DNA from: Kiritimatiellia bacterium
GTDB lineage: Bacteria > Verrucomicrobiota > Kiritimatiellia > RFP12 > UBA3636
Reading direction: 5' to 3'
Assembly (NCBI GenBank): GCA_017648065.1
Contig: JAGCJJ010000083.1
Location: 1 to 63,310 of the forward strand
Length of the DNA: 63,310 bases
How positions within the stretch are numbered: the first letter of the stretch is position 1; every line of letters starts with the position of its first letter. Below, in pieces: positions 16,080 through 48,870 of the stretch. The notes under the pieces are model-generated. The model saw only the letters and a program-made list of their open reading frames with translations, was not told where the DNA came from and ran no database searches. The translations under genes and the position numbers were made by a program.

Positions 16080-16263
16080 AAATTATGCAATTTTCCTTAT
16101 AGTTTTTTCTTGCAAAAGATATCTAGGATAGTTTAATATATGAACGAGTTGTAGTTTTATGCTACTTTAAGTCTTTAGTTATAGTGTACTTTTAGTTTTT
16201 AGATTTCATGTCTATTCAATCTTTTGGTAAAAGAGAAAATATATTTAAATATGGTAGTGAAAA

Positions 16264-24295: not shown

Positions 24296-24296
24296 T

Positions 24297-24808: not shown

Positions 24809-24809
24809 T

Positions 24810-27146: not shown

Positions 27147-27147
27147 G

Positions 27148-27272
27148 ATGGCAAATATTTAAATATTTGTATTTTCTCATGATGAATATTGTGAGCTTTC
27201 TGTACTATACTAATATATGGAGAATTATGTTAAAACCTAATTACTAATTATGCCAGTTTTATGTATTATCAA
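27148..27272 (+). pseudogene. heavily degraded DUF4422 gene start
   Basis: atggcaaatatttaaatatttgt... aligns to the start of 24297, with an internal deletion of ~100 nt and stop codons. It sits 1 nt after the upstream stop, the same position as 24297. Confidence 0.6.
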
Positions 27273-27412
27273 AAATACTCTTTTGTTTAATAATTTGGTG
27301 ATCTAATAGGTTTATAAGTAAAATTACTTTTTGTGAAAAAGGAGATGTTTAAGAAAAATCAGATGAAGATTTTTATTAGGAACAAAAATTAACATTAACA
27401 GTTTTAGAGTAA

Positions 27413-34310: not shown

Positions 34311-34331
34311 TTTATAACGAATGAGGTAATT

Positions 34332-35534
34332 ATGAAGCTAGATGTTAAAAAGTTAAATTTACTTTCAGGATTGATGCGCCGTACCATTGATGAGGGGGAA
34401 TTACCAGGTGCATCTGTAATGGTAATCAAGGATGGCGAAGAGGTGTTCTTCGATGCTGCTGGCTATGCAGATATTGAGAATGGCGTGAAGATTGATCGCG
34501 ATACATATTTTCGCCTTTACTCCCAAACAAAGCCTTTTACTGGCTTGGCTGCTGCAATGTGCGTTGACCGAGGAATCTTTTCTCCTCGTGAGCCTGTCTA
34601 TAATTATTTCCCAACCTTTGCAAATAAAAAATGCATAATCAATGGAGAAATACGCCCAGCCCCACGTCCAATTTATATCTCTGATTTGCTCAATATGACA
34701 TCAGGCATTTCATATCCAGGGAATTACGATGAGCCATCACGCGAAATGATGAAGCTCCTTGATGAGGTTAGAAAGGCACAGGATAGGGGAGAGCGCATAA
34801 CAACTCGTGAAATCGTTTCTAAGGTTGGTGAATTCCCAACAGCCTTTGCTCCAGGTGATAGGTGGAACTATGGCTTCTCTGCAGATGTTGCAGGTGCAGT
34901 AGTGGAGGTGGCAAATGATTGCCGCTATGGCGAATTTTTGCAGAAGGAAATCTTTGACCCTCTTGAGATGAAAACCATTGGCTTCTCTATTCCAGATAAA
35001 GAAAGAGGAAAGCTAGCTAAGACATACATCCGCACACAGGAGGGATTGAAGCTCTATGGAGAGCTTGAAAATCGCAATATTGGCATGAATTCCTACAAGG
35101 AGGGACTTGTAGATTTTGAATCAGGTGGAGGAGGACTTGTTGGTACAATCGATTCGCTAGGAAAATTCTCCAAGTTCATTATTGCACGTGGCAGGGTGGG
35201 TAATGAGCGCTTGATTTCAAAGTATGGCTTTGACTGGTACACCTCTCCGCAGCTAACAAAGGAGCAGGCTCGTTCCTTTGACTGGGCAGATTGCTTGAAT
35301 CAGAATTATGGCAATTTCCTCAATATCAAGACAACAATGACAGCTTGCTCAACACCTGACAATGTTGGCACCTTCGGTTGGGGTGGCTGGCTTGGCACAA
35401 ACTGCTTTGTTGACCCAGTAGAGAATATGTCAATGATTTATCTCGTACAGCGTCAGTATGAGGGTAATCCTAAGGTCCACTATACTGACCTATACTACCG
35501 TTTGCGTACGGCATTGTATTCTGCTATAGTTTAG
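34332..35534 (+). CDS. serine hydrolase (beta-lactamase/transpeptidase-like fold), paralogue 2
   Basis: Collinear with 33096-34310 (YSQTKPFTG). Shares near-identical DNA patches with it. Confidence 0.8.
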   Translation: MKLDVKKLNLLSGLMRRTIDEGELPGASVMVIKDGEEVFFDAAGYADIENGVKIDRDTYFRLYSQTKPFTGLAAAMCVDRGIFSPREPVYNYFPTFANKKCIINGEIRPAPRPIYISDLLNMTSGISYPGNYDEPSREMMKLLDEVRKAQDRGERITTREIVSKVGEFPTAFAPGDRWNYGFSADVAGAVVEVANDCRYGEFLQKEIFDPLEMKTIGFSIPDKERGKLAKTYIRTQEGLKLYGELENRNIGMNSYKEGLVDFESGGGGLVGTIDSLGKFSKFIIARGRVGNERLISKYGFDWYTSPQLTKEQARSFDWADCLNQNYGNFLNIKTTMTACSTPDNVGTFGWGGWLGTNCFVDPVENMSMIYLVQRQYEGNPKVHYTDLYYRLRTALYSAIV

Positions 35535-35605: not shown

Positions 35606-37561
35606 ATGAATTCTCATAATTTCACAATTCAGCTTCGTTCAGCCAATGGAGAAAAGCTTTGTCTTTCTGCATCAGATGCGTCTGCTATTAACCAAATTGA
35701 TAATGATGTAATATTCACTGGCTTTGTAGAAGGAATTTCTGTTGTTGCTACAGCTACGCCTGTATCTTCAACGGAAACAGAGTGGAGCATCACTATTGAC
35801 AATCCATCTGATTATGCTATTGAGTGGGTTGATTATCCTTGTGTTAAGTGTGGAAAGCTAAAGCGCAATGGAGGAGATGCTCAAATCCTTTCCTCCTATA
35901 ATGAAGGTATTATTATTGAGGACGCCTTTGCGCGTGATACCTCATCCCCATTTCCTCAAAAGCAAGTAGAATACCCATCGGAGGGTGCATACTATATGTT
36001 CCCTCACATGCTATCGGCTCAGTTTATTGCATACATCGCTCCTGCTGGTAACATATATCTTGGTGCACATGATCCAGCACGTGGACCAAAATCCATTGAC
36101 TACCGTGCCACAGAGGAAGGAGTAGAACTTTTTGTTAAAACCTTTACCGGTGTATCGTATGGTGAAAATTATTCGCTCACATATCCAATAATAACAAAAA
36201 ACTTTGAAGGAGATTGGGAGGACGCTGCCACAATCTATCGCGATTGGTTTGAGGCAAATCTTCCAGCTGGTGCCGTCAAAATTCCTTTGAACTCTCGCTT
36301 GCCCAAATGGTATGAGGATTCTCCTTTAATCATAGCATACCCAGTGCGTGGTATCCATGATATGGATGAGATGACCCCTAATGCACTTTTCCCATATATG
36401 CAAGCAATGCCAATTATTGAAGAGATTGCTCGAGAGACCCAAACTCGCGTTATGGTGCTATTGATGCATTGGGAGGGCACTGCACCATGGGCTCCTCCGT
36501 ATGTGTGGCCGCCTTATGGAGGCGAAGAAAGCTTTAATGAATTTTTAAATAAGCTCCATGAGAAAGGACATCTACTGGGAGTGTATTGCTCAGGCTTTGG
36601 CTGGACAGAGCAGTCAAATCTTATTGCAGAATATGCTCGCTCAGCAGAGAAGGAGGGCTTGCTAGATGCAATGTGTGCTGGCCCTGACGGAAAGATTTTG
36701 CTAAGTAAAATATGCACCTTCCAGCGCTCAGGCTACGATATTTGCCCAGCCGCTGAGAAGGGGCGCAAAATATTGCGTGAGGCATATTCTCCGCTTTTCT
36801 CCTCTGGTGTGGATTATGCACAGATACTTGATCAAAATCATGGTGGAGCACAGTATTTCTGCTATAGCCGCGAGCATGGACATCCTGCAATGCCAGGCGC
36901 ATGGATGACTAAAAACATGCAAGAATTGCTAGGAGAGTGGAATCGCCTTGCTCCATCAATGCTAATGGGATGTGAGTCAGCAGCAGCAGAGCCATTTACC
37001 CCAAATCTATTGTTTAGCGACAATCGATTTGAACTGAACTACTACTTTGGCAAACCAGTACCGCTTTATGCTTTCATCTATCATGAGTATTTACGTAACT
37101 TTATGGGTAATCAGGTATCATGTCCATTCCCAGTACGTGATGGCACCCTATGTATGCGTATGGCACATTCCTTTGTAGCAGGCGATGCACTTACAGTAAC
37201 ACTAATGCCAAATGGAGAGCTGATGCCAAATTGGGGATGTCGTGATTTCTCTGCATTACCAGACAAAGCAATGCATCTAGGATTTATTAAGCGATTGATG
37301 GAGTTTTATCGCGGACCAGCCAAGCCATATCTATTCTCAGGACGCATGGTAAAGCCATTGCCAGTAGAATGTCCATCAATATCAGTAACGACAATCTTCG
37401 GCTACACTCAAGAGCTTCCAGCAGTATTTTCTACTGCTTGGGAATCTGAAGGCAAGCAGGCACAAATATTTGTGAACCACACGACAGAAGCCATCACTTG
37501 CCGATGGAATAATCAAGAAATTACAATCCCAGCCCTATCAGCAGAATTCCGTAATTTTTAA
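35606..37561 (+). CDS. conserved-looking hypothetical protein (651 aa), no signal peptide
   Basis: Long uninterrupted ORF with backbone-like codon usage. No catalytic motif recognised. The track ORF starts at TTG 35591. Confidence 0.7.
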   Translation: MNSHNFTIQLRSANGEKLCLSASDASAINQIDNDVIFTGFVEGISVVATATPVSSTETEWSITIDNPSDYAIEWVDYPCVKCGKLKRNGGDAQILSSYNEGIIIEDAFARDTSSPFPQKQVEYPSEGAYYMFPHMLSAQFIAYIAPAGNIYLGAHDPARGPKSIDYRATEEGVELFVKTFTGVSYGENYSLTYPIITKNFEGDWEDAATIYRDWFEANLPAGAVKIPLNSRLPKWYEDSPLIIAYPVRGIHDMDEMTPNALFPYMQAMPIIEEIARETQTRVMVLLMHWEGTAPWAPPYVWPPYGGEESFNEFLNKLHEKGHLLGVYCSGFGWTEQSNLIAEYARSAEKEGLLDAMCAGPDGKILLSKICTFQRSGYDICPAAEKGRKILREAYSPLFSSGVDYAQILDQNHGGAQYFCYSREHGHPAMPGAWMTKNMQELLGEWNRLAPSMLMGCESAAAEPFTPNLLFSDNRFELNYYFGKPVPLYAFIYHEYLRNFMGNQVSCPFPVRDGTLCMRMAHSFVAGDALTVTLMPNGELMPNWGCRDFSALPDKAMHLGFIKRLMEFYRGPAKPYLFSGRMVKPLPVECPSISVTTIFGYTQELPAVFSTAWESEGKQAQIFVNHTTEAITCRWNNQEITIPALSAEFRNF

Positions 37562-37682
37562 TAATCCGATGTAAATCCTAATGCTGCCACGCTTACTTCA
37601 ACTGCCGTTTTTAGGTTAAAATGAACTTTTTTGTGGGTTGGTTCGTTTAAGCTTATATAATAAGTATAAGAAGAACCAAAAT

Positions 37683-38657
37683 ATGCACGTTTTTTCATCA
37701 AATCACAAAAAAGCAGCTTTTACGCTAATCGAATTGCTCGCAGTATTAGCCATTATCGGTATTGTGGCTACTATCGGTATTGCCAGCTTTAAAGGTCAGC
37801 GCGATAAAGCTACACATACAGCTGCAGAAGCAGATATGCAGGCAATTCGTAGTGCCATCGTTGGCACACAAAATGCCTCTGCTAGCTATTTGAATGATAT
37901 GCAGCACTTGCCTGGCTTTACTCCTGTTTTCTTGCGTACTCACAATTTGCTAAGCAGAACAAATGTTGTTGTACTTACTTGTTCTGATTCCGGCAGTAAG
38001 AGCTTTCGTGTATATGATGATGTTGCAGCAGAAGAACTTACATCTTGCGCAAGCTTCTTTGCTTACACAAATTTTAATGCACAAACTGAGCGTGGCTGGA
38101 ATGGGCCATATGTTCGCAATGTGAAGCCAGTCTTGGTTTTAGGACAGCCTAAAGCTGATTTTATTTTCCCAAAACCAACAGATAAGCGCTTTACTGCCGA
38201 TAAGAGCTTTTATGAGCGTAGATTTTTCCCTGCTGGCTATGAGCAGGAATTGTCAGATGCAGAGGGCAGTGGAACAAGATTTTTCTCCTATGGTATTCCA
38301 GGAGAATTGGCTATGGGCGACCCTTGGGGTAACCCATATGTAATTCAAATTCCTCCTGCTGAGGTGGTTGAGGCTCTTTATCCTGCTTCTGCTGATGAGG
38401 ATGAGTACTCTGCCACAAGATTTAAGTATGCACGCATTGTTTCTGCCGGACCAGATGGTGTGCTTGATACTCCTTGTTTTGTAAATCCAGATCCTGATTA
38501 TTCTGAGGAGCTTTTCAATGCTTTAGACAGCAAAGAAAAGTATCGCATGCTTCTGCTTGCTGGTCGCACTATTGATGATAATGGACTTCCTTGCGTGAAA
38601 GCTCGTGGAGATGACATTGTTCTATTTATTTCCAGGGAGGATGTCTATGAGGAATAA
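37683..38657 (+). CDS. prepilin-type N-terminal cleavage/methylation domain protein (large GspG-like pseudopilin/pilin)
   Basis: MHVFSSNHKKAA|FTLIELLAVLAIIGIV class III signal with Glu+5. SAGPDG and GDDI motifs near the C-terminus, as in GspG. About 312-aa mature size. Confidence 0.8.
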   Translation: MHVFSSNHKKAAFTLIELLAVLAIIGIVATIGIASFKGQRDKATHTAAEADMQAIRSAIVGTQNASASYLNDMQHLPGFTPVFLRTHNLLSRTNVVVLTCSDSGSKSFRVYDDVAAEELTSCASFFAYTNFNAQTERGWNGPYVRNVKPVLVLGQPKADFIFPKPTDKRFTADKSFYERRFFPAGYEQELSDAEGSGTRFFSYGIPGELAMGDPWGNPYVIQIPPAEVVEALYPASADEDEYSATRFKYARIVSAGPDGVLDTPCFVNPDPDYSEELFNALDSKEKYRMLLLAGRTIDDNGLPCVKARGDDIVLFISREDVYEE

Positions 38658-39672
38658 GGGCTTTACTTTAATTGAATTAGTTCTGGTGCTGGTAATCCTT
38701 GCTATTGTAACAAATATTGCAATGGTGAATATGTTGGATTCTGTGCAAAATAAAAAACATGAGCAAGCAGCAAAGGAACTAGAGGCAATCAAAGAGGCTG
38801 TTGTTGGCTCAGAGGCTGGTGCATCTGCTTCTTTTGTTGGTACAATTGGTCGCCTTCCATTATCTCTTTCTGTACTTCTTGAGGGCAAGGACTCTGCCAC
38901 AGAGCGAGTTGCTTACGCTGCCACAGAGCTAATGGAGCAGGGCATGCTTCCTGCATATAAGCAAATTGAGTTGTCAGATAATAATTCCTTTGAGCGTAGT
39001 GCATCATCACCTGCTTATGATTCTGCTATGGATGATTTGGTCCGATTGGGCGTTGGCTGGAGAGGCCCATATCTGAAGTCGTCATCAGCTAAAGCCACAG
39101 CTACAGGTGTGCTTCACGATGCGTGGGGTAATGTGATGGCTGCTCCTGATGCAGCTCTGCTTAATGGACGCCTTGCAGATGTTAATTCAAATGCAGTAGT
39201 TTCTGCTGGGGTTGAGATTGGTGGCATGGTCCACTTTGGTGAGGATGGCCGCCCAGATGCATTTGTTGCTCCTAAAGAGGCTGCACAACGCGATGGTGCT
39301 GCTATGTTTAATGCTTATGCAGCTCTTCCTGTTGAGGTGCAGCTACAGACTCCTGCAGGCGCAGCTGTCCTAGTAGATACACTTTCAAGTGGCGGTTTGT
39401 TTGTTGCGCGCCTTTATTTGCCATGCATTGAAGGTGGCGAAGCAAAGGTGAAAATTGTGGAACAAGACCCTGCCACAACACCAGTAAGTAATTGTGTTCA
39501 ATTTGATTTTTCAAATGTGCCAGTTGGTACACATCCTTTAGTTGTTAAGCATAAGCCAACAGGTAGGGTTTGGTATCAAACTGTTGAGCTTACGCCATTG
39601 TCTTATGGGCAAAACACCTACGAGGCATGTCGTTTGAAGATTACAATTCCATCAACTCTAATTACGCAATGA
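38647..39672 (+). CDS. prepilin-type N-terminal cleavage/methylation domain protein (large pilin-like)
   Basis: MRNKG|FTLIELVLVLVILAIV. A GGGAGGA RBS lies 8 nt upstream of ATG 38647. It overlaps the upstream gene. Confidence 0.8.
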   Translation: MRNKGFTLIELVLVLVILAIVTNIAMVNMLDSVQNKKHEQAAKELEAIKEAVVGSEAGASASFVGTIGRLPLSLSVLLEGKDSATERVAYAATELMEQGMLPAYKQIELSDNNSFERSASSPAYDSAMDDLVRLGVGWRGPYLKSSSAKATATGVLHDAWGNVMAAPDAALLNGRLADVNSNAVVSAGVEIGGMVHFGEDGRPDAFVAPKEAAQRDGAAMFNAYAALPVEVQLQTPAGAAVLVDTLSSGGLFVARLYLPCIEGGEAKVKIVEQDPATTPVSNCVQFDFSNVPVGTHPLVVKHKPTGRVWYQTVELTPLSYGQNTYEACRLKITIPSTLITQ

Positions 39673-40817
39673 AGATAATTTGTAAGAAAAATGAGCAAAT
39701 AATTTTAGAGCTCGGTAGTACAGTAGTTACGGCTTATCTTGCAAAAGAAGGTAAGCTAGTGCAGTTTGCTCGCCCTGCTGCAAATACACAGGCAGAGGTG
39801 CTTGCTGCAATTTTTGCGAATGAGCTGTCAATTCAAAAGAAGGCAGAGCTTGTTTTATTGAGTGCAGATTGCTTTAGCCAGATGGTTGCACTTACAGCAG
39901 CTCAGCAGCAAGGCTTATCTCCACAGGAGCTTCGCGGTGTGCTTGCTTATGAGGTAGAGCCTTTCTCAGGAATTGTTCCTCAAAGTGCTGTGCTTGCTTA
40001 TGCTTCAAGTGGAGCAGAATTTTCTGTGTTAGAAATTGAAGCATCTGAATTTAATAATCTTGTACAAGTGGCTCGTGCTAACTCAGTGGAGCTAAAGGCA
40101 ATCTTGCATGCAGGTAATCAATTTATAGAAGAATCAGAAGAGCAGAAGGAAGCTCGCCTAAAGAAGATAGCTGCTACTGGTCTGGAGCAGCTTGCAAAGT
40201 CTGAACCTGTAATTGTTGCGAAGGATATTACAAGCGCTAACACTGGCTTTTTAGAGCTCTCACCTGAGGCATTTAAGCGCTTACTTCTGCGTGTTGCTGT
40301 TGCAGTAGCAATTCTTTGTGGTCTGCATTATTTGCTTATGGATAAGGTTGTCCTAGAGGAAAAGCAAAGCGAGGTAGCAAAGCTAGAGGAGCCTGTCGCT
40401 AAAATCAATAATGCACGCAATTCTCTTTCAAAACTAAACAGAGAGATTAAAAAGCTTAAGGAAAATGGTGCTGATACAGGTGATAACAGCACAAAACTTG
40501 CTGCACGACATTTTGCTTGGAATGCAATGTTTACAATTGTAGGCTCTTCCTGCGGTGATTTTGCTTTTGTGAAGGGAATAGAGTCACCTGCATCAAATGA
40601 TGTTTGCATAAAGCTGTTCAGTGTACATAAAGATGCTGAGCTGAGATTTTACGAAATGCTCACAAAGAATAAGCTTTGTATGAATGGGTGGGAAATAATT
40701 ACACAAAAATCACGTGCTATGTCACAAAATGAATTTCATGTGTATTTGTCATACAATGAAGCAAATGCAGTAAATGCATATTTAGCTTCTCAGGCTAATT
40801 CAAAGGAGGGTAAATAA
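39669..40817 (+). CDS. bitopic assembly-platform candidate (GspL / PilM-PilN-like architecture)
   Basis: ~210-aa cytoplasmic domain, one TM (LLLRVAVAVAILCGLHYLLM), then a coiled coil and a ~130-aa domain. ATGA overlap with the pilin gene. Assigned by architecture and position only. Confidence 0.45.
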   Translation: MKIICKKNEQIILELGSTVVTAYLAKEGKLVQFARPAANTQAEVLAAIFANELSIQKKAELVLLSADCFSQMVALTAAQQQGLSPQELRGVLAYEVEPFSGIVPQSAVLAYASSGAEFSVLEIEASEFNNLVQVARANSVELKAILHAGNQFIEESEEQKEARLKKIAATGLEQLAKSEPVIVAKDITSANTGFLELSPEAFKRLLLRVAVAVAILCGLHYLLMDKVVLEEKQSEVAKLEEPVAKINNARNSLSKLNREIKKLKENGADTGDNSTKLAARHFAWNAMFTIVGSSCGDFAFVKGIESPASNDVCIKLFSVHKDAELRFYEMLTKNKLCMNGWEIITQKSRAMSQNEFHVYLSYNEANAVNAYLASQANSKEGK

Positions 40818-40820
40818 GCT

Positions 40821-41432
40821 ATGTTAACAATTACAAAGCGTGATAAAATATTTGCCCTCATAGCACTTCCTGTTGCTATAATTGCATTTTATGCTTGGGC
40901 ATTTGGTGCAGAGTTGCATGATACCTGCGGTGCATATAATGAACGCATTGAGCAACTCGGTACAGTGGATGAGCTTGAGTCTGAGCTTGCTTTGATCAAT
41001 AGTCAGATTCGTAAAGCACAAGCAGAGCTTGCGGCATTAAAGAATAATAATGCACCTGTGGTATCAAATAAGATAACAGAAAATGCTTGTGAGATATGCA
41101 ACAAGAATAATTGCCATGGTGGTGCTTTTTGCTCAAATTTAGGTGCAAGACTTGATGCATTCAGAGCTTTATTGGCAGAGCATGATATTAAGCTGTTGGC
41201 AAGCTCACGTATTGCCACAAGTGATTCAGACGCCACATCTATTGGATTACTAAACAATTATCCTGATTGTCAGCGTTGGAATATGTCAATAGAAGCTACT
41301 TATCCTGCATTGACAGATTTATTTAAAAAATGTGCAAATGAAAAGTATCCATTTGTGATTGATTCAATTGGTATGGTGCGCAGTCCAAGCGATAATAAGC
41401 AAAAGCTTTGGACAATTCAAATAATGCTTTAA
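40821..41432 (+). CDS. bitopic protein, PilO/GspM-like by architecture
   Basis: N-terminal TM (IFALIALPVAIIAFYAW), a coiled coil, then a Cys cluster (CEICNKNNCHGGAFC). The start lies 3 nt after the upstream stop. Confidence 0.4.
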   Translation: MLTITKRDKIFALIALPVAIIAFYAWAFGAELHDTCGAYNERIEQLGTVDELESELALINSQIRKAQAELAALKNNNAPVVSNKITENACEICNKNNCHGGAFCSNLGARLDAFRALLAEHDIKLLASSRIATSDSDATSIGLLNNYPDCQRWNMSIEATYPALTDLFKKCANEKYPFVIDSIGMVRSPSDNKQKLWTIQIML

Positions 41433-41463
41433 TAAAGCAATATTATCAAACAGGATTTTTATT

Positions 41464-42540
41464 ATGAAGAACGAAGTTTTATTAAATCTCTTCAAGTGCT
41501 GCGAAGAATTTTCTGCCTCAGATATTCATATTACAAGTGGTGAGGTGCCATATTTGCGCATTCAAGGCAAATTGATACAGGTACCAAATTATGCAAGCAT
41601 TTCTGCAAGCGAGGCTAGAGAGCTTGCTCTTTGCTTGCTACGCGAGATGAATGGAGAGGGTAGCGATGAGGCAAATCAAAAGCAGCTCGCCTCCACACAG
41701 GCAATAGATGGAGCAGTCACCTCTGCTGCAGGCTCACGCTATCGCTTCAATATTTTTAAGCAAAATAATGGCTATGGTGTAGCACTTCGTAGATTGGATG
41801 ATAAATTTCAAACAATCAGCCAGTTAGGCCTTCCTGAGCAGCTGGCTTCTTTTTGTAAGCTTACACATGGCCTCGTGATTGTATCAGGCCCTACAGGTTC
41901 AGGTAAGAGCACCACAATTGCTACACTTCTTGATATGATTAACTCCTCTCGCTCTGGTCATATAATTACAATTGAAGACCCAATTGAATATATACACAAA
42001 TCAAAGCAATGCCTTGTTCAACAGCGCCAGATTGGACGCGATGCATTATGCTTTAATGCAGCATTAGTTGAAGCATTACGCCAAGACCCTGACACAATTT
42101 TTGTTGGAGAAATCCGCGAAATTGAAACAATGCGTACAGCAATTACTGCAGCAGAGACAGGTCATCTTGTTTTTACAACCCTTCATTCTGGCGATACCGT
42201 TGGTGCGATAGAGCGCTTTGTGTCTGTGTTCCCTGAAGGCGAGCAAGACAGCATTCGACAGCAGTTGTCTTTGGTACTTCGTGGCGTATTTGCACAGCGC
42301 TTGCTTCCTGCAAAGGAAGAGGGGGAGCGTCGCGTAGTTTGCAATGAGCTGCTTCTCATAACTCCAGCAGTTTCAAATTTGATTGCTACAGGAAAATCTC
42401 GTCAAATTGCATCAATGATGCAGACTGGCCGTTCATCTGGTATGATTACCTTTGATGAGTCTCTTAATCAGCTATATTCAAGCGGAAAAATTTCCCAAGA
42501 AACCTATAGCTCAATGGCTGTTACTGCAAGTGCCAGATAG
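41464..42540 (+). CDS. pilT: type IV pilus retraction ATPase PilT family
   Basis: 358 aa, collinear with P. aeruginosa PilT: ASDIHI, GPTGSGKSTT, ITIEDPIEY, AAETGHLVFTTLH. Confidence 0.9.
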   Translation: MKNEVLLNLFKCCEEFSASDIHITSGEVPYLRIQGKLIQVPNYASISASEARELALCLLREMNGEGSDEANQKQLASTQAIDGAVTSAAGSRYRFNIFKQNNGYGVALRRLDDKFQTISQLGLPEQLASFCKLTHGLVIVSGPTGSGKSTTIATLLDMINSSRSGHIITIEDPIEYIHKSKQCLVQQRQIGRDALCFNAALVEALRQDPDTIFVGEIREIETMRTAITAAETGHLVFTTLHSGDTVGAIERFVSVFPEGEQDSIRQQLSLVLRGVFAQRLLPAKEEGERRVVCNELLLITPAVSNLIATGKSRQIASMMQTGRSSGMITFDESLNQLYSSGKISQETYSSMAVTASAR

Positions 42541-42556
42541 TGGTTAGGAATTTATT

Positions 42557-44047
42557 ATGAATAATAACGAAGAAAAGATTTCTCTCCAGAATGTACAAAT
42601 AGACCCACGCTGGGCATTGCGCATAAACCCTGCAATTGCTATGCGCAGGCTTGCATTGCCAATTTGCAAGCTAGGTGATGAGCTGGTTGTTGCTATGGCT
42701 GATGGTAATGATAAGCAGACAATTGCAGCAATAGAGGCAGCAGCAGGACTTCGCGTACGCACTATTATTGCAGAGCAAGCAGAATTGCGCCAGGCATTGC
42801 TTCGCGTGTATGGAGATGCACGCAGTGGGGCGACAGACTCTGCCACAGCAATTGAGAGCTCGGACGATCCAGTGGCAATTGTGGATGCATTTGTTCGTGC
42901 AGCAGTGATTCGCCAAGCCTCTGATATTCATGTAGAGCCTACCCGTACAGGATTGCGCATCCGTTTTCGCGTTGATGGCGTGCTAGAAGAATTTGCTGCA
43001 CTTCCACAGAGTGTTCAGGCAGCTGTTTGCAGCCGCATCAAGGTGCTGGCAGGACTTGATATTGCTGAAAAGCGTGCTGCACAGGATGGTTCCTTTACTT
43101 GGCTTCCACCAGCTACAGGTAATTCACGCAGCAAGGTTCCCCCTTATGATGTGCGTGTAGCAACACTTCCTGTACGCTATGGCGAGCGTATTACAATGCG
43201 CTTGCTAGAGACAGGCAATTCACGTATTTTACTAAATGATTTAGGTTTATGTGATGAGCATAATGCTCAGCTGACAAGTGTGCTTGCCCGCCCTCATGGT
43301 CTTGTGCTTTTGACTGGTCCTACAGGCTCTGGAAAAACAACAACACTTTATGCAGCTATCCAGCATTTGCTTGAAACCGCCTCACTAAATATTCTTACAG
43401 TTGAAGATCCTATTGAATATGAGACAGAGGGAATTTCTCAAGTTGAGGTAGACAGCAGCGATAAGGTTAATTTTGCTAAAGCATTGCGCAGCCTTTTGCG
43501 TCACGACCCAGATGTTGTGATGATTGGTGAGATACGTGATGCAGAATCTCTTGATGCTGCAGTAAAAGCCGCGCTTACCGGCCATCTTGTGCTTTCCACA
43601 CTTCACACAAATGATGCACCAAGTGCAGTTACTCGTTTGCGTGATATGGGTCTTGAACCTCATCTTATTGCTGCAACTCTGCGCTTATCTGTAGCACAGC
43701 GCCTTGTTCGCCGTCTTTGTCCTGAATGTGCAGAAAAATATGCACTTACCCAAGCAGAGGCAAATAGCTTGGGCCGCCCAGAGCTCGTTGGCTCTGATGC
43801 ATATAAGCCATGTGGTTGCCTGGCATGCTCAGGCAGGGGATATGTAGGCCGCGTAGGTTTATTTGAATTTATGCTTCCTACAGCAAAGCTGTCAGAACAA
43901 ATAGCTGCAGATGCTCCTCTTGGAGAGCTGATTGCTCAAATGAAGGAAGAAAAGCAGCGCTTGCTTATTGATGATGCAATAGCAAAGATTCAGGCAGGTG
44001 TAACAACTGTTGCCGAAGCAATGACAGCAATTGATTCTGGCAGATAA
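42557..44047 (+). CDS. GspE/PilB family type II secretion / type IV pilus assembly ATPase
   Basis: T2SSE N-terminal domain, GPTGSGKTTT, TVEDPIEY, LTGHLVLSTLHTND, and a tetracysteine CPEC...CGCLAC. Confidence 0.9.
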   Translation: MNNNEEKISLQNVQIDPRWALRINPAIAMRRLALPICKLGDELVVAMADGNDKQTIAAIEAAAGLRVRTIIAEQAELRQALLRVYGDARSGATDSATAIESSDDPVAIVDAFVRAAVIRQASDIHVEPTRTGLRIRFRVDGVLEEFAALPQSVQAAVCSRIKVLAGLDIAEKRAAQDGSFTWLPPATGNSRSKVPPYDVRVATLPVRYGERITMRLLETGNSRILLNDLGLCDEHNAQLTSVLARPHGLVLLTGPTGSGKTTTLYAAIQHLLETASLNILTVEDPIEYETEGISQVEVDSSDKVNFAKALRSLLRHDPDVVMIGEIRDAESLDAAVKAALTGHLVLSTLHTNDAPSAVTRLRDMGLEPHLIAATLRLSVAQRLVRRLCPECAEKYALTQAEANSLGRPELVGSDAYKPCGCLACSGRGYVGRVGLFEFMLPTAKLSEQIAADAPLGELIAQMKEEKQRLLIDDAIAKIQAGVTTVAEAMTAIDSGR

Positions 44048-44117
44048 TTTTTCTGCCAGAGAACAAATTGTATGTGCTATACGTTTATATATAGTGCAAA
44101 AGAAAGAAAAATAATTC

Positions 44118-45344
44118 ATGGCTCAATTTTCATATAAAATCAAAACACGCGCAGGCGTTCTGCAAACAGGAATCCGAGAGGCTGCCTCTTCAGCGATTCT
44201 TGCGGAGCAATTGCGTCTTGATGGAAATATAATTATTGAGCTGACAGAGGTACATAAGCCATTAGAGCAAAGCCCAGCTAATGCACCTTGGTATTCTTTA
44301 GGCTGGCTGAAGCCTGTGCGTTCTCTTGATATTGAATTAGGCCTGCGCGAGCTTGCATATATGCTAAGAAGTGGCGTGCCAATTGTTGCTGCGTTGCAGA
44401 CGGTTGAGGAGCAAGCAGAGAGTCCACGTGCAGCATTAGTGTGGTCACGCGTTCGCACACGTATTTCGCAAGGTGCAAGTGTTTCAGATGCACTTGCAGG
44501 CGAAAAAGGTGTGTTCGCAGACGAGCAAATTCAGCTGGCAATTGCCGGTGAGCATACTGGTGAGCTTGAGCAGGTGTTTACGCGTGCTGCAAATCAATTG
44601 GAGGCGCGACGCAAGCTCCGCATGACAGTAATAAATGCTCTTGTTTATCCTGTGCTTGCATTACTTCTTGCATTTGCTGTTTCCATATATCTTGTTGTTT
44701 CAGTAATCCCAAAAATGGCACAATTTTTGCAACAAGGAAATGCAGAACTCCCAGCATTGACTCAGGTTCTTGTTGATATTTCAGATTGGCTTCATCTTAA
44801 TGCCTTACCTCTCGCAATAGCAATTGGTGGCACAGTGCTCGCATGGATAATTGTTCGTATGTACCCCTTGGGTCGCATACTTGAGGATGCGTTTTTATTG
44901 CGACTCCCAATTGCAGGCAAGGTATTGCGTCTTTCCGCAACAACAAATTTTGCCAGAACAATGTCTCTTTTAATTGAGAGTGGCGTTACTTTAATAGATT
45001 CGCTTCGTGTTTCCGCTAATATGCTAGAGAATCGCCGCTTGAGGGCTAGGGTGGAGGAAGCACGAGAGAGAGTAATAAAAGGCGAGTCGCTCGCTCAGGC
45101 TTTGAGACCAGCTAAGGAATTTATGCCTATGCTTTCTCGTATGACAGCTGTTGCGGAAACTACAGGTGATCTTTCAGAGACTTTTAAAGAAGTGGCAGAG
45201 TTTCACGATACACTTTTGGGTATTGTGGTGCGTCGCTTAAGTGTGGTAATGGAGCCAATTATGATACTTATTACAGGTGTAGTAGTTGGTTTTGTTTATT
45301 TAGCCTTTTTCATGGCTCTATTCACAATGGGCACAATGCAGTAA
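44118..45344 (+). CDS. GspF/PilC family inner-membrane platform protein
   Basis: 408 aa with a duplicated T2SSF domain organisation and three TM segments. Confidence 0.85.
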   Translation: MAQFSYKIKTRAGVLQTGIREAASSAILAEQLRLDGNIIIELTEVHKPLEQSPANAPWYSLGWLKPVRSLDIELGLRELAYMLRSGVPIVAALQTVEEQAESPRAALVWSRVRTRISQGASVSDALAGEKGVFADEQIQLAIAGEHTGELEQVFTRAANQLEARRKLRMTVINALVYPVLALLLAFAVSIYLVVSVIPKMAQFLQQGNAELPALTQVLVDISDWLHLNALPLAIAIGGTVLAWIIVRMYPLGRILEDAFLLRLPIAGKVLRLSATTNFARTMSLLIESGVTLIDSLRVSANMLENRRLRARVEEARERVIKGESLAQALRPAKEFMPMLSRMTAVAETTGDLSETFKEVAEFHDTLLGIVVRRLSVVMEPIMILITGVVVGFVYLAFFMALFTMGTMQ

Positions 45345-45388
45345 ATTTAATCAATCGGAGCAGCCGATATTTTTCAGGTAAATAAATT

Positions 45389-47443
45389 ATGAAAATAAAT
45401 AAAATATTCACATCATTAACAGTATTACTTAGCGCAGTTGTAGTATTTGCAAATGACCCTACTACAGCATCAGAGAAGCTAGCAGACGAAATTAAGTCTC
45501 AGCTCACAGAATTGCAAAGCTTTAAGCTTTCCGCCCTGGTTTGTGGTGAGGCAGATAAAGGAGTAGCGATTATTGTAGCACCTAATGGGAAAGAATATTT
45601 TCTTCGTCCTGATTCATCAATTCAGTATGAATATTCCGGAGTACCAATAAAGCTTGATATTAAATCAATTACAGCAGAAGGTGTTCAGCTGGAGGCTCCA
45701 ACACTAAATGAGAAGCTATGGATTGGTACAAGCTATAAGCTTTCAAATGCAGCAAAGCAAACTGAGAATGATGGCGTTTTATCCCATGTAGAAGCTAATA
45801 ACTTTGAGCTAGGGCAGTTGGTTCGCTTGCTTTCTGAACAGGTAGGAGTAAATATTTCTGCTTCAGAAAATGCTGCAAGCATAAAGGTATCTGTATTTCT
45901 AAGAAATGTACCAATCAATGTAGTTGTTGAAGAAGTATGCAGAGCACATAATTTATGGTATCGCACAGATGAAAAGAGTGGCATTGTCCGTATTACAACA
46001 ATGAAAGAATACGAGGGCAGCCTTCAAACCTTCCGTGAGGAGCAAACTCGTACCTTCACTTTGCTTTATCCAAATGTAATTGAGATCGCATCTGTAATCT
46101 ATGGACTTTATCCTGAGCGCGTATATTTAACTCTTGGCGAGACAGATATTCTTGATGATGAATTGAATGATTTGAGCCGACGCTTTGAGCGTCTTGAAAT
46201 GATTGATTCATCAAGTGCTGGTTCTTTCCTTAAAATTGATCCAGGCAATATTTCTGCTCGTGGTACATCTGGTGATGCATTTAACTCTTCTGACAACAAC
46301 AATCGCAATCTTTCCAGAGATTATTCAAATAAAGAAAACTTTGGAGGAATGACCACAGAAGCAGCTGCCCAACTTGAGGCAGCACGTGGTAACGAAGAGG
46401 AATTTCGTAAAAAGTTGGATTTGTTCCGCAATCAGGCACCAAGCATCTTTGTTACAGTAAGCCGCAAGAATAATATTATCATTGTTCGTACAAGCGATCC
46501 AAAGGTAATGGATGAAATATCCACATTGATTAAAAAGTTGGATGTGGCAACACCAAGTGTAATGCTTGAAATGAAAATTGTTCAAGTTACACTTGATGAT
46601 GAATTTAATTCTACTTTTGAGTATGAAATTAAGTCAGACAATACAATCAATGGAAATGTGTATTCATCACTTGCTGGTTTCCCAGGTTTTAATCCACTAG
46701 CAAATACACCTCGTACAGATTCATTCTCGTATTCATTGATAAGCGATCAATTCAGTGCTCGCATTCAGTTGTTAGAGAAAGATGGCAAGGCAAAGCTAAT
46801 TGCCACACCAACACTACTTATAGCAAACAATGAGGTTTCACGCATCTTTATTGGAGAGGAGAAACCTATTACTACAGGAGTAAAGATGGAGCCAGTTACT
46901 GGTACAATTGATGGAATGACCTCAACAATTGGCTATACAGTAGAGCCTCAGATAGAGATGACACCAATTGGAACTACTCTTGTAATTGCACCAAATATCA
47001 ATGCAGATCGCAGTGTGGTAATTCGTCTTATGCAGGAGGAGTCATCTGTAAAGCAGAATGGTGGCTCAATTCCTTATGGTAATGCAAGTTCATTGCAGAC
47101 ATATAGTGTTGATACCATTCAGTCACGACGCATCAGCGGCACATTTATTACGCAAGATGGAATGTTGGCTGGTATTGGTGGTTTGATTACAGAGACAGAG
47201 ATAGAGCAAATTTCTCGTGTGCCAATTTTGGGTCGCATCCCACTTATTGGATTCTTATTCCGCAGTACAGAGCGCGTAAAGCAGCGTTCTGAGTTAGTAA
47301 TTCTGATTCGTCCACATGTAATTTGCACACCATTGGAGAGCGAGCGCGCAACAACAGAGTTGCTAGAGCGCATTGCACCAAAAACAACAAAAGCATTGGA
47401 TTTGGAGCAACCAGCAGCAGAACCAGAGTTAGGTAATAGATAA
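45389..47443 (+). CDS. secretin (GspD/PilQ family)
   Basis: Signal peptide. C-terminal secretin domain (ATPTLLIANNEVSRIFIGE ... VPILGRIPLIGFLFRS ... ELVILIRPHVI). Confidence 0.85.
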   Translation: MKINKIFTSLTVLLSAVVVFANDPTTASEKLADEIKSQLTELQSFKLSALVCGEADKGVAIIVAPNGKEYFLRPDSSIQYEYSGVPIKLDIKSITAEGVQLEAPTLNEKLWIGTSYKLSNAAKQTENDGVLSHVEANNFELGQLVRLLSEQVGVNISASENAASIKVSVFLRNVPINVVVEEVCRAHNLWYRTDEKSGIVRITTMKEYEGSLQTFREEQTRTFTLLYPNVIEIASVIYGLYPERVYLTLGETDILDDELNDLSRRFERLEMIDSSSAGSFLKIDPGNISARGTSGDAFNSSDNNNRNLSRDYSNKENFGGMTTEAAAQLEAARGNEEEFRKKLDLFRNQAPSIFVTVSRKNNIIIVRTSDPKVMDEISTLIKKLDVATPSVMLEMKIVQVTLDDEFNSTFEYEIKSDNTINGNVYSSLAGFPGFNPLANTPRTDSFSYSLISDQFSARIQLLEKDGKAKLIATPTLLIANNEVSRIFIGEEKPITTGVKMEPVTGTIDGMTSTIGYTVEPQIEMTPIGTTLVIAPNINADRSVVIRLMQEESSVKQNGGSIPYGNASSLQTYSVDTIQSRRISGTFITQDGMLAGIGGLITETEIEQISRVPILGRIPLIGFLFRSTERVKQRSELVILIRPHVICTPLESERATTELLERIAPKTTKALDLEQPAAEPELGNR

Positions 47444-47688
47444 TAGTGAATAACGAAAAGATTAGGTAAAATATTTTTGGGGAGAGCATTTGCTACCTAA
47501 AAGTGCGAAGTTTTAGACAGGATTGACTATAATTTTGTTTGGATTTTGTCGGATGCTGCGTGGTGGCTAGGAGCTGATTTTATTTTGGTTCGTAAATAAT
47601 TTTATTTGCTTGCAATATTCCTATTATGCTAAAATGTTCCTAAATTTAATAAAATCACTTTGTTGAAATATTCTTAAAGGAGAAATTT

Positions 47689-48870
47689 ATGAAACCAGTT
47701 TTATGTGAGCAGACTTGGCGTTGGTATGGTCCAAATGACCCTATTACACTTGCTGATATTAAGCAGACAGGTGTAACAGGCATTGTTAATGCATTGCATC
47801 ATATTCCTAATGGCGAGGTATGGACAGTTGAGGAAATCACAAAGCGTAAGGAAATTATTGAGGCTGCTGGACTTACTTGGTCAGTAGTTGAGAGTGTGCC
47901 TGTACATGAGCATATTAAGACACGCGAAGGCGAATTTCAGCGCTATATCGATAACTACAAGCAGTCTCTTCGTAATCTTGGTGCATGTGGAGTAAAGGTT
48001 GTTACATATAACTTTATGCCAGTTTTGGATTGGACTCGTACTGATCTTGCTTATACAATGCCAGATGGTTCTAAGGGACTTCGCTTTGAAAAGGCAGCAT
48101 TTGTTGCTTTTGAACTATTTATTTTGAAGCGTCCAGGAGCTGAGGCAGCATATACAGAGGCTGAGATTGCAAAGGCAAAGGCTCGCTTTGATGCTATGAG
48201 TGAGGATGAAAAGAATACGCTTGTTCGCAATATGATTGCAGGTCTGCCTGGTTCTGAGGAAAGCTTTACTATTGAGCAGTTCCAGCAGGCATTAGACCGC
48301 TATAAGGATATTGATGCAGATACTCTACGTGGAAATCTAATTGAATTCTTGAAGGAGATTTGCCCTGTTGCTGACGAGGCAGGTGTAAGCTTAGTAATTC
48401 ATGCTGATGATCCTCCATATCCAATTCTTGGCTTGCCTCGCATTATGAGCACAGCCGATGATTTCCAGGCAATTATTGATGCTGTGCCTAATAAGTCAAA
48501 TGGCTTGTGTTTCTGCACTGGCTCATTTGGCGTACGTGCAGACAATGATTTGCCAGATATGATGCGCCGCTTCGGAGATCGCATTAACTTTGTACATCTA
48601 CGCAGCACACAGGGTGATGAGGAAGGTAATTTCCATGAAGCAAATCACCTTGAGGGCGATGTTGATATGTATGGTGTAATGAAGGCTTTGCTTGAGGTGG
48701 AGCAGCGTCGCGGTGTTTCTATTGCTGTACGCCCAGACCATGGACACCAGATGATTGATGACTTGAATAAGAAGACAAATCCAGGTTACTCCTGCATTGG
48801 CCGTATGCGCGGTATTGCAGAGCTTCGCGGCCTAGAGATGGGAATTGCTTATTCTTTGTTCAATAAGTAA
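47689..48870 (+). CDS. uxuA: mannonate dehydratase
   Basis: [39 protein letters not shown] is almost collinear with E. coli UxuA. 393 aa. Confidence 0.95.

Follow-up and report, generated by a model that had tools for sequence, protein, structure and literature searches.

Gene content and surroundings of the locus

The window, i.e., the whole stretch of DNA that was analysed (63,310 nucleotides), belongs to an uncultured Kiritimatiellia bacterium (PVC superphylum), the source habitat of which is the ruminant gut. At 37683-47443, on the + strand, lie eight tightly packed genes encoding two prepilin-type proteins, two bitopic proteins, a PilT, a GspE/PilB-type ATPase, a GspF/PilC protein and a secretin:

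37683..38657, + strand, pilin-like 1, 324 aa (class III signal peptide, N_methyl, TIGR02532)
38647..39672, + strand, pilin-like 2, 341 aa (N_methyl, TIGR02532, paralogue of pilin 1)
39669..40817, + strand, GspL-like (PilM-PilN-fusion-like) bitopic platform protein, 382 aa (Foldseek, family profile)
40821..41432, + strand, GspM-like bitopic platform protein, 203 aa (T2SSM_b and T2SSM matches in family members)
41464..42540, + strand, PilT-family retraction ATPase, 358 aa (TIGR01420)
42557..44047, + strand, GspE/PilB-type assembly ATPase, 496 aa (MshEN and T2SSE)
44118..45344, + strand, GspF/PilC inner-membrane platform protein, 408 aa (T2SSF, twice)
45389..47443, + strand, secretin, 684 aa (Pfam Secretin)

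Successive genes are separated by -11, -4, 3, 31, 16, 70 and 44 nt, and the nearest genes beyond the group lie 121 nt upstream and 245 nt downstream. The eight genes form one operon, which encodes a GspE-type hexameric ATPase, GspF, an L-like and an M-like protein, a secretin with a GspD-like core, PilT and two prepilins. A preliminary description of this DNA had already reported eight co-oriented, tightly packed genes in this interval, in agreement with the ORF calls and the spacings of -11 to 70 nt; its start for the third protein (39627) was moved to 39669, because of the lengths of the orthologues. It had also taken the locus to be much more GC-rich than its surroundings. The locus has 42.6% GC, compared with 43.3% in the 5 kb upstream and 39.3% in the 5 kb downstream, and GC3 is 27-35% in its genes and 25-42% in the neighbours; since adjoining genes and GC3 show the same values, the idea of a GC-rich island fails. 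The mean of the window is low (37.5%) because a polysaccharide island at 21-29 kb, with 23-30% GC, drags it down. The neighbouring genes (two beta-lactamase-family genes, DUF6259 and UxuA) are unrelated.

Two absences in the window had been described, and both held. No A24 peptidase was found among the polytopic membrane ORFs tested (about half of the ORFs of the window were profile-scanned), nor was a prepilin peptidase found within 10 kb of the five longest related loci; the six-frame scan of the 63 kb gave no class III prepilin signal beyond those of the two pilins, consistent with there being no set of small minor (pseudo)pilins. Profile and six-frame scans of the locus detected neither a GspC/PilP equivalent nor small minor pseudopilins, no PilY1 or minor-pilin set was seen in the window, and no competence genes adjoin the locus among the genes scanned.

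ATPases, GspF and secretin

It is known that the PilT motor normally retracts type IV pili and that it is a hallmark of the type IVa pilus (T4aP). The PilT of this locus scores 385 bits with TIGR01420 (cut-off 319), its best PDB matches are PilT of Aquifex, Pseudomonas and Geobacter (276-253 bits), and it has intact Walker A, Walker B and His boxes. In place of the AIRNLIRE motif, which is important for PilT function in Pseudomonas, it has A[VI][SA]NLIATGK, conserved in six orthologues. [quoted passage not shown]

The assembly ATPase has the length and domain layout of GspE (MshEN, T2SSE), the tetracysteine motif is present, and its catalytic motifs are intact, as are those of PilT. It matches TIGR02533 (GspE) with 471 bits over the full length and TIGR02538 (PilB) with 454 bits, the first ~170 positions missing, both below cut-off. 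Against the PDB it is equidistant from M. xanthus PilB (336 bits) and V. cholerae EpsE (330 bits), a point in favour of the surface pilus discussed below, and its identity is 44% to E. coli GspE versus 37% to HofB. GspF/PilC carries two Pfam T2SSF domains and three predicted hydrophobic segments, and scores 263 bits with TIGR02120 (GspF) and 244 bits with Thermus PilC, likewise below cut-off.

The secretin has a signal peptide and a Pfam Secretin match of 120.6 bits. Its model scores are 165 bits for GspD versus 106 for PilQ and 105 for MshL, and the PDB chains follow suit (GspD 65-80 bits, PilQ 31-60 bits). In hhalign it aligned to residues 311-604 of E. coli GspD with a probability of 99.3% and nothing aligned upstream. 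The N3 domain and the core are GspD-like; the N-terminal ~330 residues have no assignable domain and no alignment with N0-N2, and no AMIN domain was detected by the profile scan. The earlier naming of these components (a clear PilT, a GspE/PilB ATPase, a GspF/PilC protein and a secretin) is thus confirmed by their family and Pfam domains, while profile classification into subtypes is not clean: PilT alone passes its equivalog cut-off, and no other component passes for any classified subtype.

The two bitopic platform proteins

The two bitopic proteins had been described as lacking recognisable motifs. Each indeed has one predicted transmembrane (TM) segment, and the window's own copies have no Pfam/NCBIfam match, but both can be placed. 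In protein 3, an actin-like domain in the cytoplasm is followed by one TM segment at ~205-225, a coiled coil and, in the periplasm, a ferredoxin-like domain. Its AF2 model is of low confidence (pLDDT 55); with this model, the top Foldseek matches of the cytoplasmic part were GspL cytoplasmic domains (4pht_Y, E=4e-4; 5tkw), and those of the periplasmic part were the periplasmic domains of GspL, PulL, XcpY and EpsL. The family (221 representatives in 1.84 billion proteins) gave a profile of 52 members which matched M. xanthus PilN (3jc8, E=1.5e-11), and Pfam PilN matches four of these 52; the TM, coiled-coil and periplasmic region is homologous to PilN. Protein 3 is GspL-like, equivalent to a PilM-PilN fusion.

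Near the N-terminus of protein 4 is a TM segment (10-28), followed by a coiled coil and, at the C-terminal end, an alpha/beta domain; the protein also carries a CxxCx4Cx5C insertion that is restricted to the gut clade. Among 26 family members, 13 match Pfam T2SSM_b (best E=5.9e-6) and five match T2SSM, and on these matches we regard the protein as GspM-like. A PDB sequence search with it gave no match, and hhalign against E. coli GspL and GspM found nothing. With an L and an M platform part accounted for in this way, the machine is less reduced than first read.

Two large pilins

Both FTLIEL-type proteins (324 and 341 aa) pass Pfam N_methyl and TIGR02532, as expected from the preliminary description. 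Pilin 1 has the class III signal peptide MHVFSSNHKKAA/FTLIEL (the slash marks the predicted cleavage site), with Ala at -1 and Glu5 retained. Its match to the GspG model covers the N-terminal helix, the PDB chain most similar to this helix is PilA-N, and hhalign against E. coli GspG was also confined to it. Pilin 1 and E. coli GspG have a DPWGNPYV...SAGPDG motif (DPWGNxYV...SAGPDG) in common, and 93 of 121 family members show a sub-threshold match to Pfam T2SSG. AF2 gave a confident model of pilin 1 (pLDDT 87, pTM 0.86), and no PDB fold match was found for it. The family comprises at least 156 clusters, every one bearing an organism name being Kiritimatiellia, and Ka/Ks is 0.10-0.15. We propose that pilin 1 is a large pseudopilin derived from GspG, and it may be the major subunit.

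Pilin 2 (MRNKG/FTLIEL) is 25-30% identical to pilin 1 over ~146 aa in tblastn and matches it in hhalign with E=4e-24; the two are paralogues, both with a sub-threshold GspG signature (DPWGNxY...SAGPDG). At its C-terminus there is an added beta-rich module of ~110 aa, kept in 10 orthologues together with the GWRGPY, DAWGN and H.G.DG motifs, and Ka/Ks is 0.12-0.18. It could be a minor, priming or tip pilin. A point against the machine proposed below is that pilin heads of 30 kDa would give a thick filament, which might not pass a secretin.

Conservation across relatives

The order pilin-pilin-L-M-PilT-E-F-secretin is found in at least 10 divergent loci (L001-L006, L007-L009, L015, L017/L018 and L019) from Kiritimatiellia and from at least one MAG labelled Lentisphaerae, in line with the earlier suggestion of a PVC-lineage machine. 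In every full locus, down to ~20% L-like identity, pilT lies between the M-like gene and gspE, and in L013 the L-M-PilT trio is found by itself. All eight genes are under purifying selection (Ka/Ks 0.06-0.24), and in at least four species none of the eight ORFs is disrupted. That there are only two pilins, as had been stated, is true of this gut clade; among relatives whose sequence extends past the secretin, most have one to three additional pilin-like genes there, and L019 has a third pilin upstream instead. These extra genes are also large (314-367 aa), not of GspH/I/J size. RNA-labelled runs give thin cover of the contig, and DNA is a possible source of it.

Relation to known systems

The T2SS of Proteobacteria (Gsp/Pul/Eps/Xcp) shares with this locus the length and layout of GspE, GspF, the fused GspL-like protein with a GspM-like one, the single operon, the GspD-like N3 domain and core of the secretin, and the GspG signature of the pilins. 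Unlike it, the locus has PilT, lacks GspC, GspH, GspI, GspJ, GspK and an in-locus GspO, has two pilins of 324-341 aa instead of one GspG of ~145 aa, has a ~330 aa secretin N-terminus not alignable with N0-N2, and attains no T2SS equivalog cut-off. With T4aP (PilABCDMNOPQT) it has in common a PilT above the family cut-off, the PilB/PilT ATPase pair, a PilC-type platform, a secretin and the PilN-homologous region of the L-like protein; unlike T4aP, it shows in the locus and window scans no separate PilM/PilN, no PilP, TsaP, PilY1 or minor-pilin set, there is no AMIN in the secretin, the pilin heads are not PilA-like and the ATPase is without the long PilB N-terminus.

The chlamydial "T2SS", classed as generic and of chimeric origin (Denise et al. 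2019, PMC6668835), is also from the PVC superphylum, with few components, no recognisable minor pseudopilins and a misfit to the T2SS model; it is reported without GspL/GspM, whereas L-like, M-like and PilT proteins are present here, a separation made by description. The Bacteroidetes (Cytophaga) "T2SS", which branches with T4aP (Denise et al. 2019, PMC6668835), is likewise a secretion-associated type IV filament machine between textbook classes, and its major pilin is very divergent; it comes from another phylum and is likened by description only. The toxin-coregulated pilus TCP (T4b) has a major pilin TcpA and one large minor pilin TcpB (PMC5207764). It offers a functional analogy only, a two-pilin logic by which one large minor pilin of several domains could serve both to prime assembly and to set off retraction; TCP is without PilT, its pilins are T4b-type, and its ATPase, platform and secretin come from another clade.

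The PilA-N/PilA-C filament of Geobacter is a secretion pseudopilus rather than a nanowire, according to reports. It too is a filament built from two pilin genes in a machine with PilT, and the sequence likeness does not extend past the N-terminal helix; in Geobacter the pilin is divided between a short helix protein and a separate head protein, whereas both pilins are complete here.

Proposed function and alternatives

Taking composition and inferred mechanism jointly, the best explanation is a T2SS-like type IV filament machine that retains a PilT retraction motor, to which we assign a probability of roughly 0.55. The combination of T2SS-leaning parts with PilT also upholds the preliminary view of a divergent type IV filament machine that is neither textbook T2SS nor T4aP. 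According to Denise et al. (2019, PMC6668835), PilB and PilT arose by a duplication that predates the divergence of T4aP and T2SS, and PilT was later lost in T2SS.

A true retractile surface pilus, i.e., a functional T4aP analogue, is possible if somewhat doubtful: pilin 1 would form an external fibre, the module of pilin 2 would be a tip adhesin and PilT would pull; the pilus would serve in twitching, in DNA uptake or in holding on to mucin or plant particles, rather than in protein secretion. The conserved PilT inside the operon, the match of the C-terminal half of the L-like protein to PilN and the additional pilin-like genes past the secretin in relatives would suit such a pilus, and bimodular pilins with adhesive modules are known, e.g., S. 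sanguinis PilB (PMC8179133). However, the pilin signature is of GspG type, not PilA type, the platform combines a fused L-like protein with an M-like one where T4aP has PilM, PilN, PilO and PilP as separate proteins, and the secretin core is closest to GspD, with AMIN not detected; the lack of a PilY1/minor-pilin set in the window and of adjoining competence genes among those scanned also speaks against it.

An ordinary T2SS, with GspC, GspH-K and GspO in a second operon and PilT as a passenger serving a separate T4aP elsewhere, seems improbable. Genes for prepilin peptidases and minor pilins frequently lie outside the main locus (Denise et al. 2019, PMC6668835), the view of the genome is limited to 63 kb, and Spring et al. 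(2016, PMC5148204) termed the system of Kiritimatiella glycovorans, a genome with many exported sulfatases, simply "a type II secretion system". Against this stand the constant place of pilT in all full loci and its company with L-M alone in L013, the T2SS equivalog cut-offs that no component attains, pilins two to three times the size of GspG and the equally large extra pilins of the relatives. A decaying or silent remnant without present function, to which the several absent canonical parts and the thin, possibly DNA-derived cover by RNA-labelled runs would point, is very unlikely in view of the intact ORFs, the Ka/Ks values, the intact catalytic motifs of both ATPases and a gene order kept over deep divergence.

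In the T2SS-like machine with a retained PilT, a prepilin peptidase encoded elsewhere would cut both prepilins before Phe+1, and GspE, docked on the L-like cytoplasmic domain and GspF, would polymerise pilin 1, giving a helical filament that lies beneath the secretin or passes through it. With its pilin module and beta-rich module, pilin 2 might act as a single priming/tip subunit, substituting for the GspH-K or FimU-PilVWX sets, much as TcpB does in TCP, and PilT would displace GspE at the platform and depolymerise the filament. From the T2SS-like build, PilT and only two unusually large pilins, it is therefore a distinct variant of a well-known machine. In these polysaccharide-degrading gut anaerobes it would most likely serve to export folded exoproteins through the secretin by an actively reset piston or endopilus, with a short retractile surface fibre as the main alternative.

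Class assignment of the locus

Denise et al. 2019 (PMC6668835) have a generic model of type IV filaments (TFF), in which an ATPase of PilB/GspE type and a PilC/GspF platform are encoded together with one or more prepilin-type pilins, and in diderms also with a secretin. The locus corresponds to this definition, with matches over the Pfam gathering cut-off to T2SSE, to Secretin and, two each, to T2SSF and N_methyl, and its eight genes are:

37683..38657, + strand, pilin 1 (324 aa)
38647..39672, + strand, pilin 2 (341 aa)
39669..40817, + strand, protein 3, L-like (382 aa)
40821..41432, + strand, protein 4, M-like (203 aa)
41464..42540, + strand, PilT
42557..44047, + strand, GspE/PilB-type assembly ATPase (496 aa)
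44118..45344, + strand, GspF/PilC platform protein (408 aa)
45389..47443, + strand, secretin (684 aa)

The preliminary description had proposed that these genes fit neither a textbook type II secretion system (T2SS) nor a type IVa pilus (T4aP), and we came to the same view, since class-defining parts of each are absent from the locus. Compared to T2SS, it lacks GspC and GspH-K, and PilT, which is absent by definition from a T2SS, is conserved within the operon. Compared to T4aP, it lacks minor pilins with PilY1 and a PilA-type head, and instead of separate PilM, PilN, PilO and PilP it has one fused L-like and one M/O-like protein, with no PilP. Five of the eight parts lean to T2SS (pilin signature, fused L-like protein, M-like protein, ATPase layout and secretin core), while one, PilT, is a hallmark of the retractile T4aP.

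Denise et al. 2019 (PMC6668835) placed the PilB/PilT duplication before the clade of T4aP, type IVb pili (T4bP), MSH, T2SS and ComM, with a later loss of PilT in T2SS. In the same study, the chlamydial T2SS is a generic, chimeric system lacking minor pilins and GspLM, and the Cytophaga 'T2SS' groups with T4aP. The present system fits as another non-canonical TFF lineage, a T2SS-like build that still has PilT. We found no published description of this architecture; for the Kiritimatiella glycovorans genome, Spring et al. 2016 (PMC5148204) list only 'a type II secretion system'.

Gene layout and surroundings

The genes are co-oriented and tightly packed, as first described, with successive overlaps or gaps of -11, -4, 3, 31, 16, 70 and 44 nt, and they are set off by 121 nt from the upstream gene and 245 nt from the downstream gene. 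Profile scans upheld six of the eight initial gene assignments (two prepilins, PilT, assembly ATPase, platform and secretin). The other two genes had been called bitopic proteins of no recognised family; neither has a family match of its own and each has one predicted membrane span, and they are now read as GspL-like and GspM/PilO-type. The start of protein 3 is placed at 39669 and not 39627, i.e., 14 codons downstream of the long-ORF start, because all orthologues have 382-391 aa and begin with MKI[IN]CKKN; an exact database look-up with the long-ORF start gave no record.

A six-frame scan of the 63 kb returned two prepilin (class III) signals only, which agrees with the reported absence of small minor pilins from the window. 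No prepilin peptidase was present among the ORFs of the window that were scanned, and the polytopic ORFs tested are not A24 peptidases. An A24 peptidase is also not annotated within 10 kb of five related loci (L007, L009, L015, L017 and L019). This enzyme (GspO/PilD) is often encoded alone (Denise et al. 2019, PMC6668835).

Products of the flanking genes include beta-lactamase-family hydrolases, a DUF6259 protein and mannonate dehydratase. The hydrolase genes form a tandem pair of paralogues at 33096-35534 (beta-lactamase family, serine hydrolases, 404 and 400 aa), and directly downstream of this pair come the DUF6259 gene and the pilus locus. On the other side, at 50802-52472, a single 556-aa ORF fuses a LacAB_rpiB ribose-5-phosphate isomerase B domain (3-137) to a full serine hydroxymethyltransferase (150-524). 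In a greedy map of about 48 ORFs of at least 100 aa, all but two are on the + strand (of these two, one is a doubtful call of 109 aa), and GC skew is positive across the whole window, which fits a long leading-strand stretch.

The locus had also been described as much more GC-rich than its surroundings, which does not hold: it has 42.6% GC, compared with 43.3% in the 5 kb upstream and 39.3% in the 5 kb downstream, and the GC3 of its genes (27-35%) is like that of the neighbours. A GC-rich island, or horizontal transfer of the locus, is ruled out, since the adjoining genes have the same GC and their GC3 is equal. The low mean of the window is due mainly to a surface-polysaccharide cluster of 23-30% GC at 21-29 kb. 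The whole biosynthesis cluster (14432-29179) encodes RmlA, RmlC, GT2, a nucleotidyl transferase, two epimerase/dehydratases, an amine oxidase-like protein, CDP-glycerol glycerophosphotransferases, DUF4422 and GT8. Towards its distal end (21270-27146), GC is only 23-24% and GC3 12-17%, far under the rest of the window, and this part is likely a horizontally exchanged serotype-type region.

Rfam gave no match in 37000-48200, and in promoter and terminator scans the promoter matches were no better than shuffled controls. RNA-labelled runs cover the locus with scattered low-depth contigs only, possibly from DNA carry-over, and are too thin to be used as expression. In bovine-gut runs, contig depth rises 5-10 fold over about 80 nt of the secretin-uxuA intergenic region (47497-47576, ...GACAGGATTGACTATAATTTTGTTTGGATTTTGTCGGATGCTGCGTGGTGGCTAGGAGCTG...), with loose ends on both sides, which suggests a multi-copy short interspersed element. 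This element has a single copy in the window and no Rfam match, and strains with about 95% identity seem to have a related copy ahead of pilin 1 (between 37575 and 37588). One contig joint leads from 37575 to 47503, skipping exactly the locus as if from an empty site. Since other strains carry the related repeat upstream of pilin 1, this joint is better explained by the multi-copy intergenic repeat.

Pilins

Both pilins pass N_methyl/TIGR02532 and keep Phe+1 and Glu5, and position -1 is Ala in all pilin 1 orthologues and Gly in pilin 2. They are paralogues, with 25-30% identity over about 146 aa (tblastn) and a hhalign E-value of 4e-24. Only their N-terminal helices resemble solved pilins by sequence, with Geobacter PilA-N as the best match, and the heads gave no match to the PilA chains in PDB, either by sequence or by fold (fold search with the pilin 1 model).

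The head of pilin 1 carries the motifs GWNGPY, DPWGNPYV and SAGPDG, the last two of which make up a signature in common with E. coli GspG (...DPWGNDYV...LLSAGPDGEMGTEDDI). Pfam T2SSG is reached sub-threshold in 93 of 121 members of the pilin 1 family; for pilin 1 of the window the score is 15.4 bits (cut-off 21, E=0.02), over residues 211-229, which are exactly the DPWGN stretch. The GspG model TIGR01710 scores 41 bits (cut-off 89) over the helix only, and hhalign against E. coli GspG also aligned the N-terminal helix alone. In the AlphaFold model of pilin 1 from a deep alignment (pLDDT 87, pTM 0.86), the long helix at the N terminus is followed by a large head rich in coil. Foldseek with this confident model returned nothing from PDB with E below 2, so the head fold is not tied structurally to GspG, and the pilin 1 head is at best a strongly elaborated GspG derivative.

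Pilin 2 has the corresponding core motifs GWRGPY, DAWGN and H.G.DG. Behind this core lies a beta-rich module (about 110 residues), which ten orthologues keep. Neither prepilin reaches the GspH cut-off, the GspI, GspJ and GspK models have no match, and none of these four is present elsewhere in the 63-kb window. FimU, PilV, PilW, PilX and PilE minor pilins with PilY1 are absent from the same 63 kb.

Motors, platform and secretin

PilT scores 385.1 bits on TIGR01420 (cut-off 319.1), i.e., within the T4aP retraction ATPases. Its nearest PDB matches are Aquifex, Pseudomonas and Geobacter PilT (276-253 bits), with PilU behind, and it has kept intact Walker and His boxes. In place of AIRNLIRE, the window protein reads AVSNLIAT, and the pattern in all six orthologues aligned is A[VI][SA]NLIATGK.

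The assembly ATPase (496 aa) consists of MshEN and T2SSE domains. It scores 470.9 bits over the full length of the GspE model TIGR02533 (cut-off 630), and 453.9 bits on the PilB model, where the match covers only model position 172 onwards. Among PDB structures it is equidistant, with 336 bits for M. xanthus PilB and 330 bits for V. cholerae EpsE, and its sequence identity is 44% with E. coli GspE and 37% with HofB. The platform protein (T2SSF) leans slightly to GspF over PilC.

The N3 domain and core of the secretin are nearest to GspD, with 165 bits on the GspD model over both (cut-off 351), and hhalign aligned them to E. coli GspD residues 311-604 with 99.3% probability; in that alignment nothing matched the first approx. 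330 residues of the secretin, or N0-N2 of GspD. The PilQ model gives 105.8 bits (cut-off 284), which does not make the protein a PilQ, and no AMIN domain, a common feature of PilQ, was detected in it. GspC, PilP and HR-domain models had no match among the eight proteins or the flanking proteins tested; in a T2SS, GspC connects the platform with N0 of the secretin.

The L-like and M-like proteins

The AlphaFold model of protein 3, built from a shallow alignment, has a pLDDT of 55 overall and about 80 in the C-terminal domain. Its best Foldseek matches are to the GspL cytoplasmic domain (4pht chains X and Y, E=4e-4; PulL 5tkw), and its C-terminal part matches the periplasmic domains of PulL, XcpY and EpsL, as well as PulM. 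Across both GspL domains, this low-confidence model matches 4pht_Y, 5tkw, 5hl8, 5n7l, 2w7v and 8a9w. An exhaustive profile search placed 221 representatives in the protein 3 family. A 52-member profile matches M. xanthus PilN (E=1.5e-11) from the TM segment through the coiled coil into the periplasmic region, and Pfam PilN is present in 4 of these 52 members. Because of the Foldseek matches to GspL, the PilN profile match and the four members with Pfam PilN, protein 3 is a predicted GspL-type protein, equivalent to a fused PilM-PilN. A GspL is bitopic: its actin-like domain binds GspE in the cytoplasm, and its periplasmic domain is ferredoxin-like; protein 3 corresponds to this on topology and low-confidence predicted fold, and its GspE-binding role is putative.

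Protein 4 begins with a membrane span, continues as a coiled coil and ends in an alpha/beta region, a topology that fits GspM. GspM similarity in its 26-member family stays under the curated cut-offs (T2SSM_b in 13/26, best 5.9e-6; T2SSM in 5/26), and protein 4 of the window itself matches neither model. PDB sequence searches with the single protein and with the 26-member profile returned coiled-coil noise only. We read protein 4 as the GspM/PilO-type partner. Since hhalign found no sequence similarity of protein 3 to E. coli GspL and no signal of protein 4 to E. coli GspM, the L/M assignment rests on fold, topology and family-level profile matches; such negatives are unsurprising, as these parts are fast-evolving.

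Protein 4 has an inserted cysteine cluster, CxxCx4Cx5C, on its periplasmic side (residues about 90-104 in the window; also in L004-L006). It occurs only in the gut clade, that is, the window locus and its closest relatives, and is absent from the orthologues in L007, L009 and L010. It could be a metal or disulfide site.

Conservation and relatives

In the word-indexed protein collection, close relatives of protein 3 number only six, which a genome scan placed in uncultured Kiritimatiellae/Kiritimatiellia metagenome-assembled genomes (MAGs) from cattle and roe-deer rectum, with one further MAG labelled 'uncultured Verrucomicrobia'. The contig of the window has 98% identity with JAFPBK010000018.1 (RGIG990). 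DNA of the locus is present in bovine, pig and other gut metagenomes. The order of the eight genes is unchanged in four MAG species and two metagenome contigs, where the flanking genes are different. Identity to the window is 81-86% for the secretin in other species (99% in L003, a near-identical strain), 79-86% for GspE, 75-81% for PilT, 65-81% for the pilins, 48-62% for protein 3 and 41-47% for protein 4.

The pilin 1 family comprises at least 156 clusters of 280-320 aa with 35-45% identity, and every organism-named cluster is from Kiritimatiellia. In distant members the order is pilin, pilin, L-like, M-like, short T2SSE, long MshEN-T2SSE, T2SSF and secretin, and it is complete in L007/L008, L009, L015/L016, L017/L018 (from a MAG named Lentisphaerae bacterium) and L019. 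The short T2SSE ATPase of L007 is also over the PilT cut-off, and in L013 the L-like protein, the M-like protein and PilT (over the cut-off) stand alone together. Since the order is kept in distant loci, the PilT cut-off is passed in L007 and this trio exists in L013, PilT belongs to the system as a conserved, integral component and is not beside it by chance.

The gut clade has two pilin genes only; in several relatives, the secretin is followed by another one to three large genes of prepilin type (314-367 aa). In L010, pilin, pilin, L-like and M-like genes stand alone together; this is a split copy of the pilin-pilin-L-M module, and a second operon of minor pilins is ruled out there. In L019 (16016-16477 and 7390-10004), which among the full loci is the most distant, the L-like protein has 489 aa and its gene is preceded by three pilin-like genes, where other relatives have further ones after the secretin. 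An additional ORF of 153 aa separates gspF from the secretin gene there and may encode a GspC/PilP-like or pilotin-like component which the window lacks. At the same position in L015 (14653-15326), and also in L016, a DUF6364 and PIN-domain pair looks like a toxin-antitoxin module.

Proposed mechanism and alternatives

We propose that a peptidase encoded elsewhere would cleave both prepilins, after which GspE, on a platform of GspF and the L-like and M-like proteins, would polymerise pilin 1. Pilin 2, which is bimodular and the sole other pilin of the locus, may prime or cap the filament, replacing the four-protein tip complex; the single large minor pilins of T4b pili (PMC5207764) offer an analogy for this role. 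PilT would then depolymerise the filament. The whole package would thus be protein export by an actively reset endopilus of a T2SS-like machine with PilT, to which we give a probability of about 0.55. Export is favoured because of the T2SS-like parts and because these glycan degraders depend on exoenzymes.

The main rival is a retractile adhesive surface pilus. PilT speaks for it, and the T2SS-like lean of the other parts speaks for export; we regard the surface pilus as less probable than export. The same five parts could belong to a canonical T2SS beside an unrelated PilT, which is quite unlikely given the conserved place of PilT in the operon. A dead remnant, which the absence of several canonical parts might suggest, is very improbable, with Ka/Ks of 0.06-0.24 for all eight genes against two species (rough values, as synonymous sites are near saturation).

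Beyond the proposed export function, and tentatively, the system may be a distinct TFF class across much of the PVC superphylum (Kiritimatiellota, Lentisphaerota, possibly beyond), with both halves of the ancestral PilB/PilT pair and T2SS-type G, L, M and D parts. It might then be a living T4aP-T2SS intermediate, with a PilT-retracted filament of just two large GspG-derived pilins. If so, PilT would power the 'piston reset' which canonical T2SS manage with no dedicated motor.

Biological significance

How the T2SS endopilus is disassembled with no retraction ATPase, and how T2SS originated from pilus machines, are open questions. On both, a conserved system found in nature that joins an in-operon PilT to G, L, M and D parts of T2SS type gives a comparative handle. 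The minimal two-pilin set bears on the fewest pilins needed to prime and build a filament, and the cultured relatives Kiritimatiella and Pontiella would make the system testable. Kiritimatiellia, abundant in guts and sediments as degraders of sulfated and complex glycans, are reliant on exported enzymes, and this operon is an obvious candidate for the principal device of export or attachment at their outer membrane.
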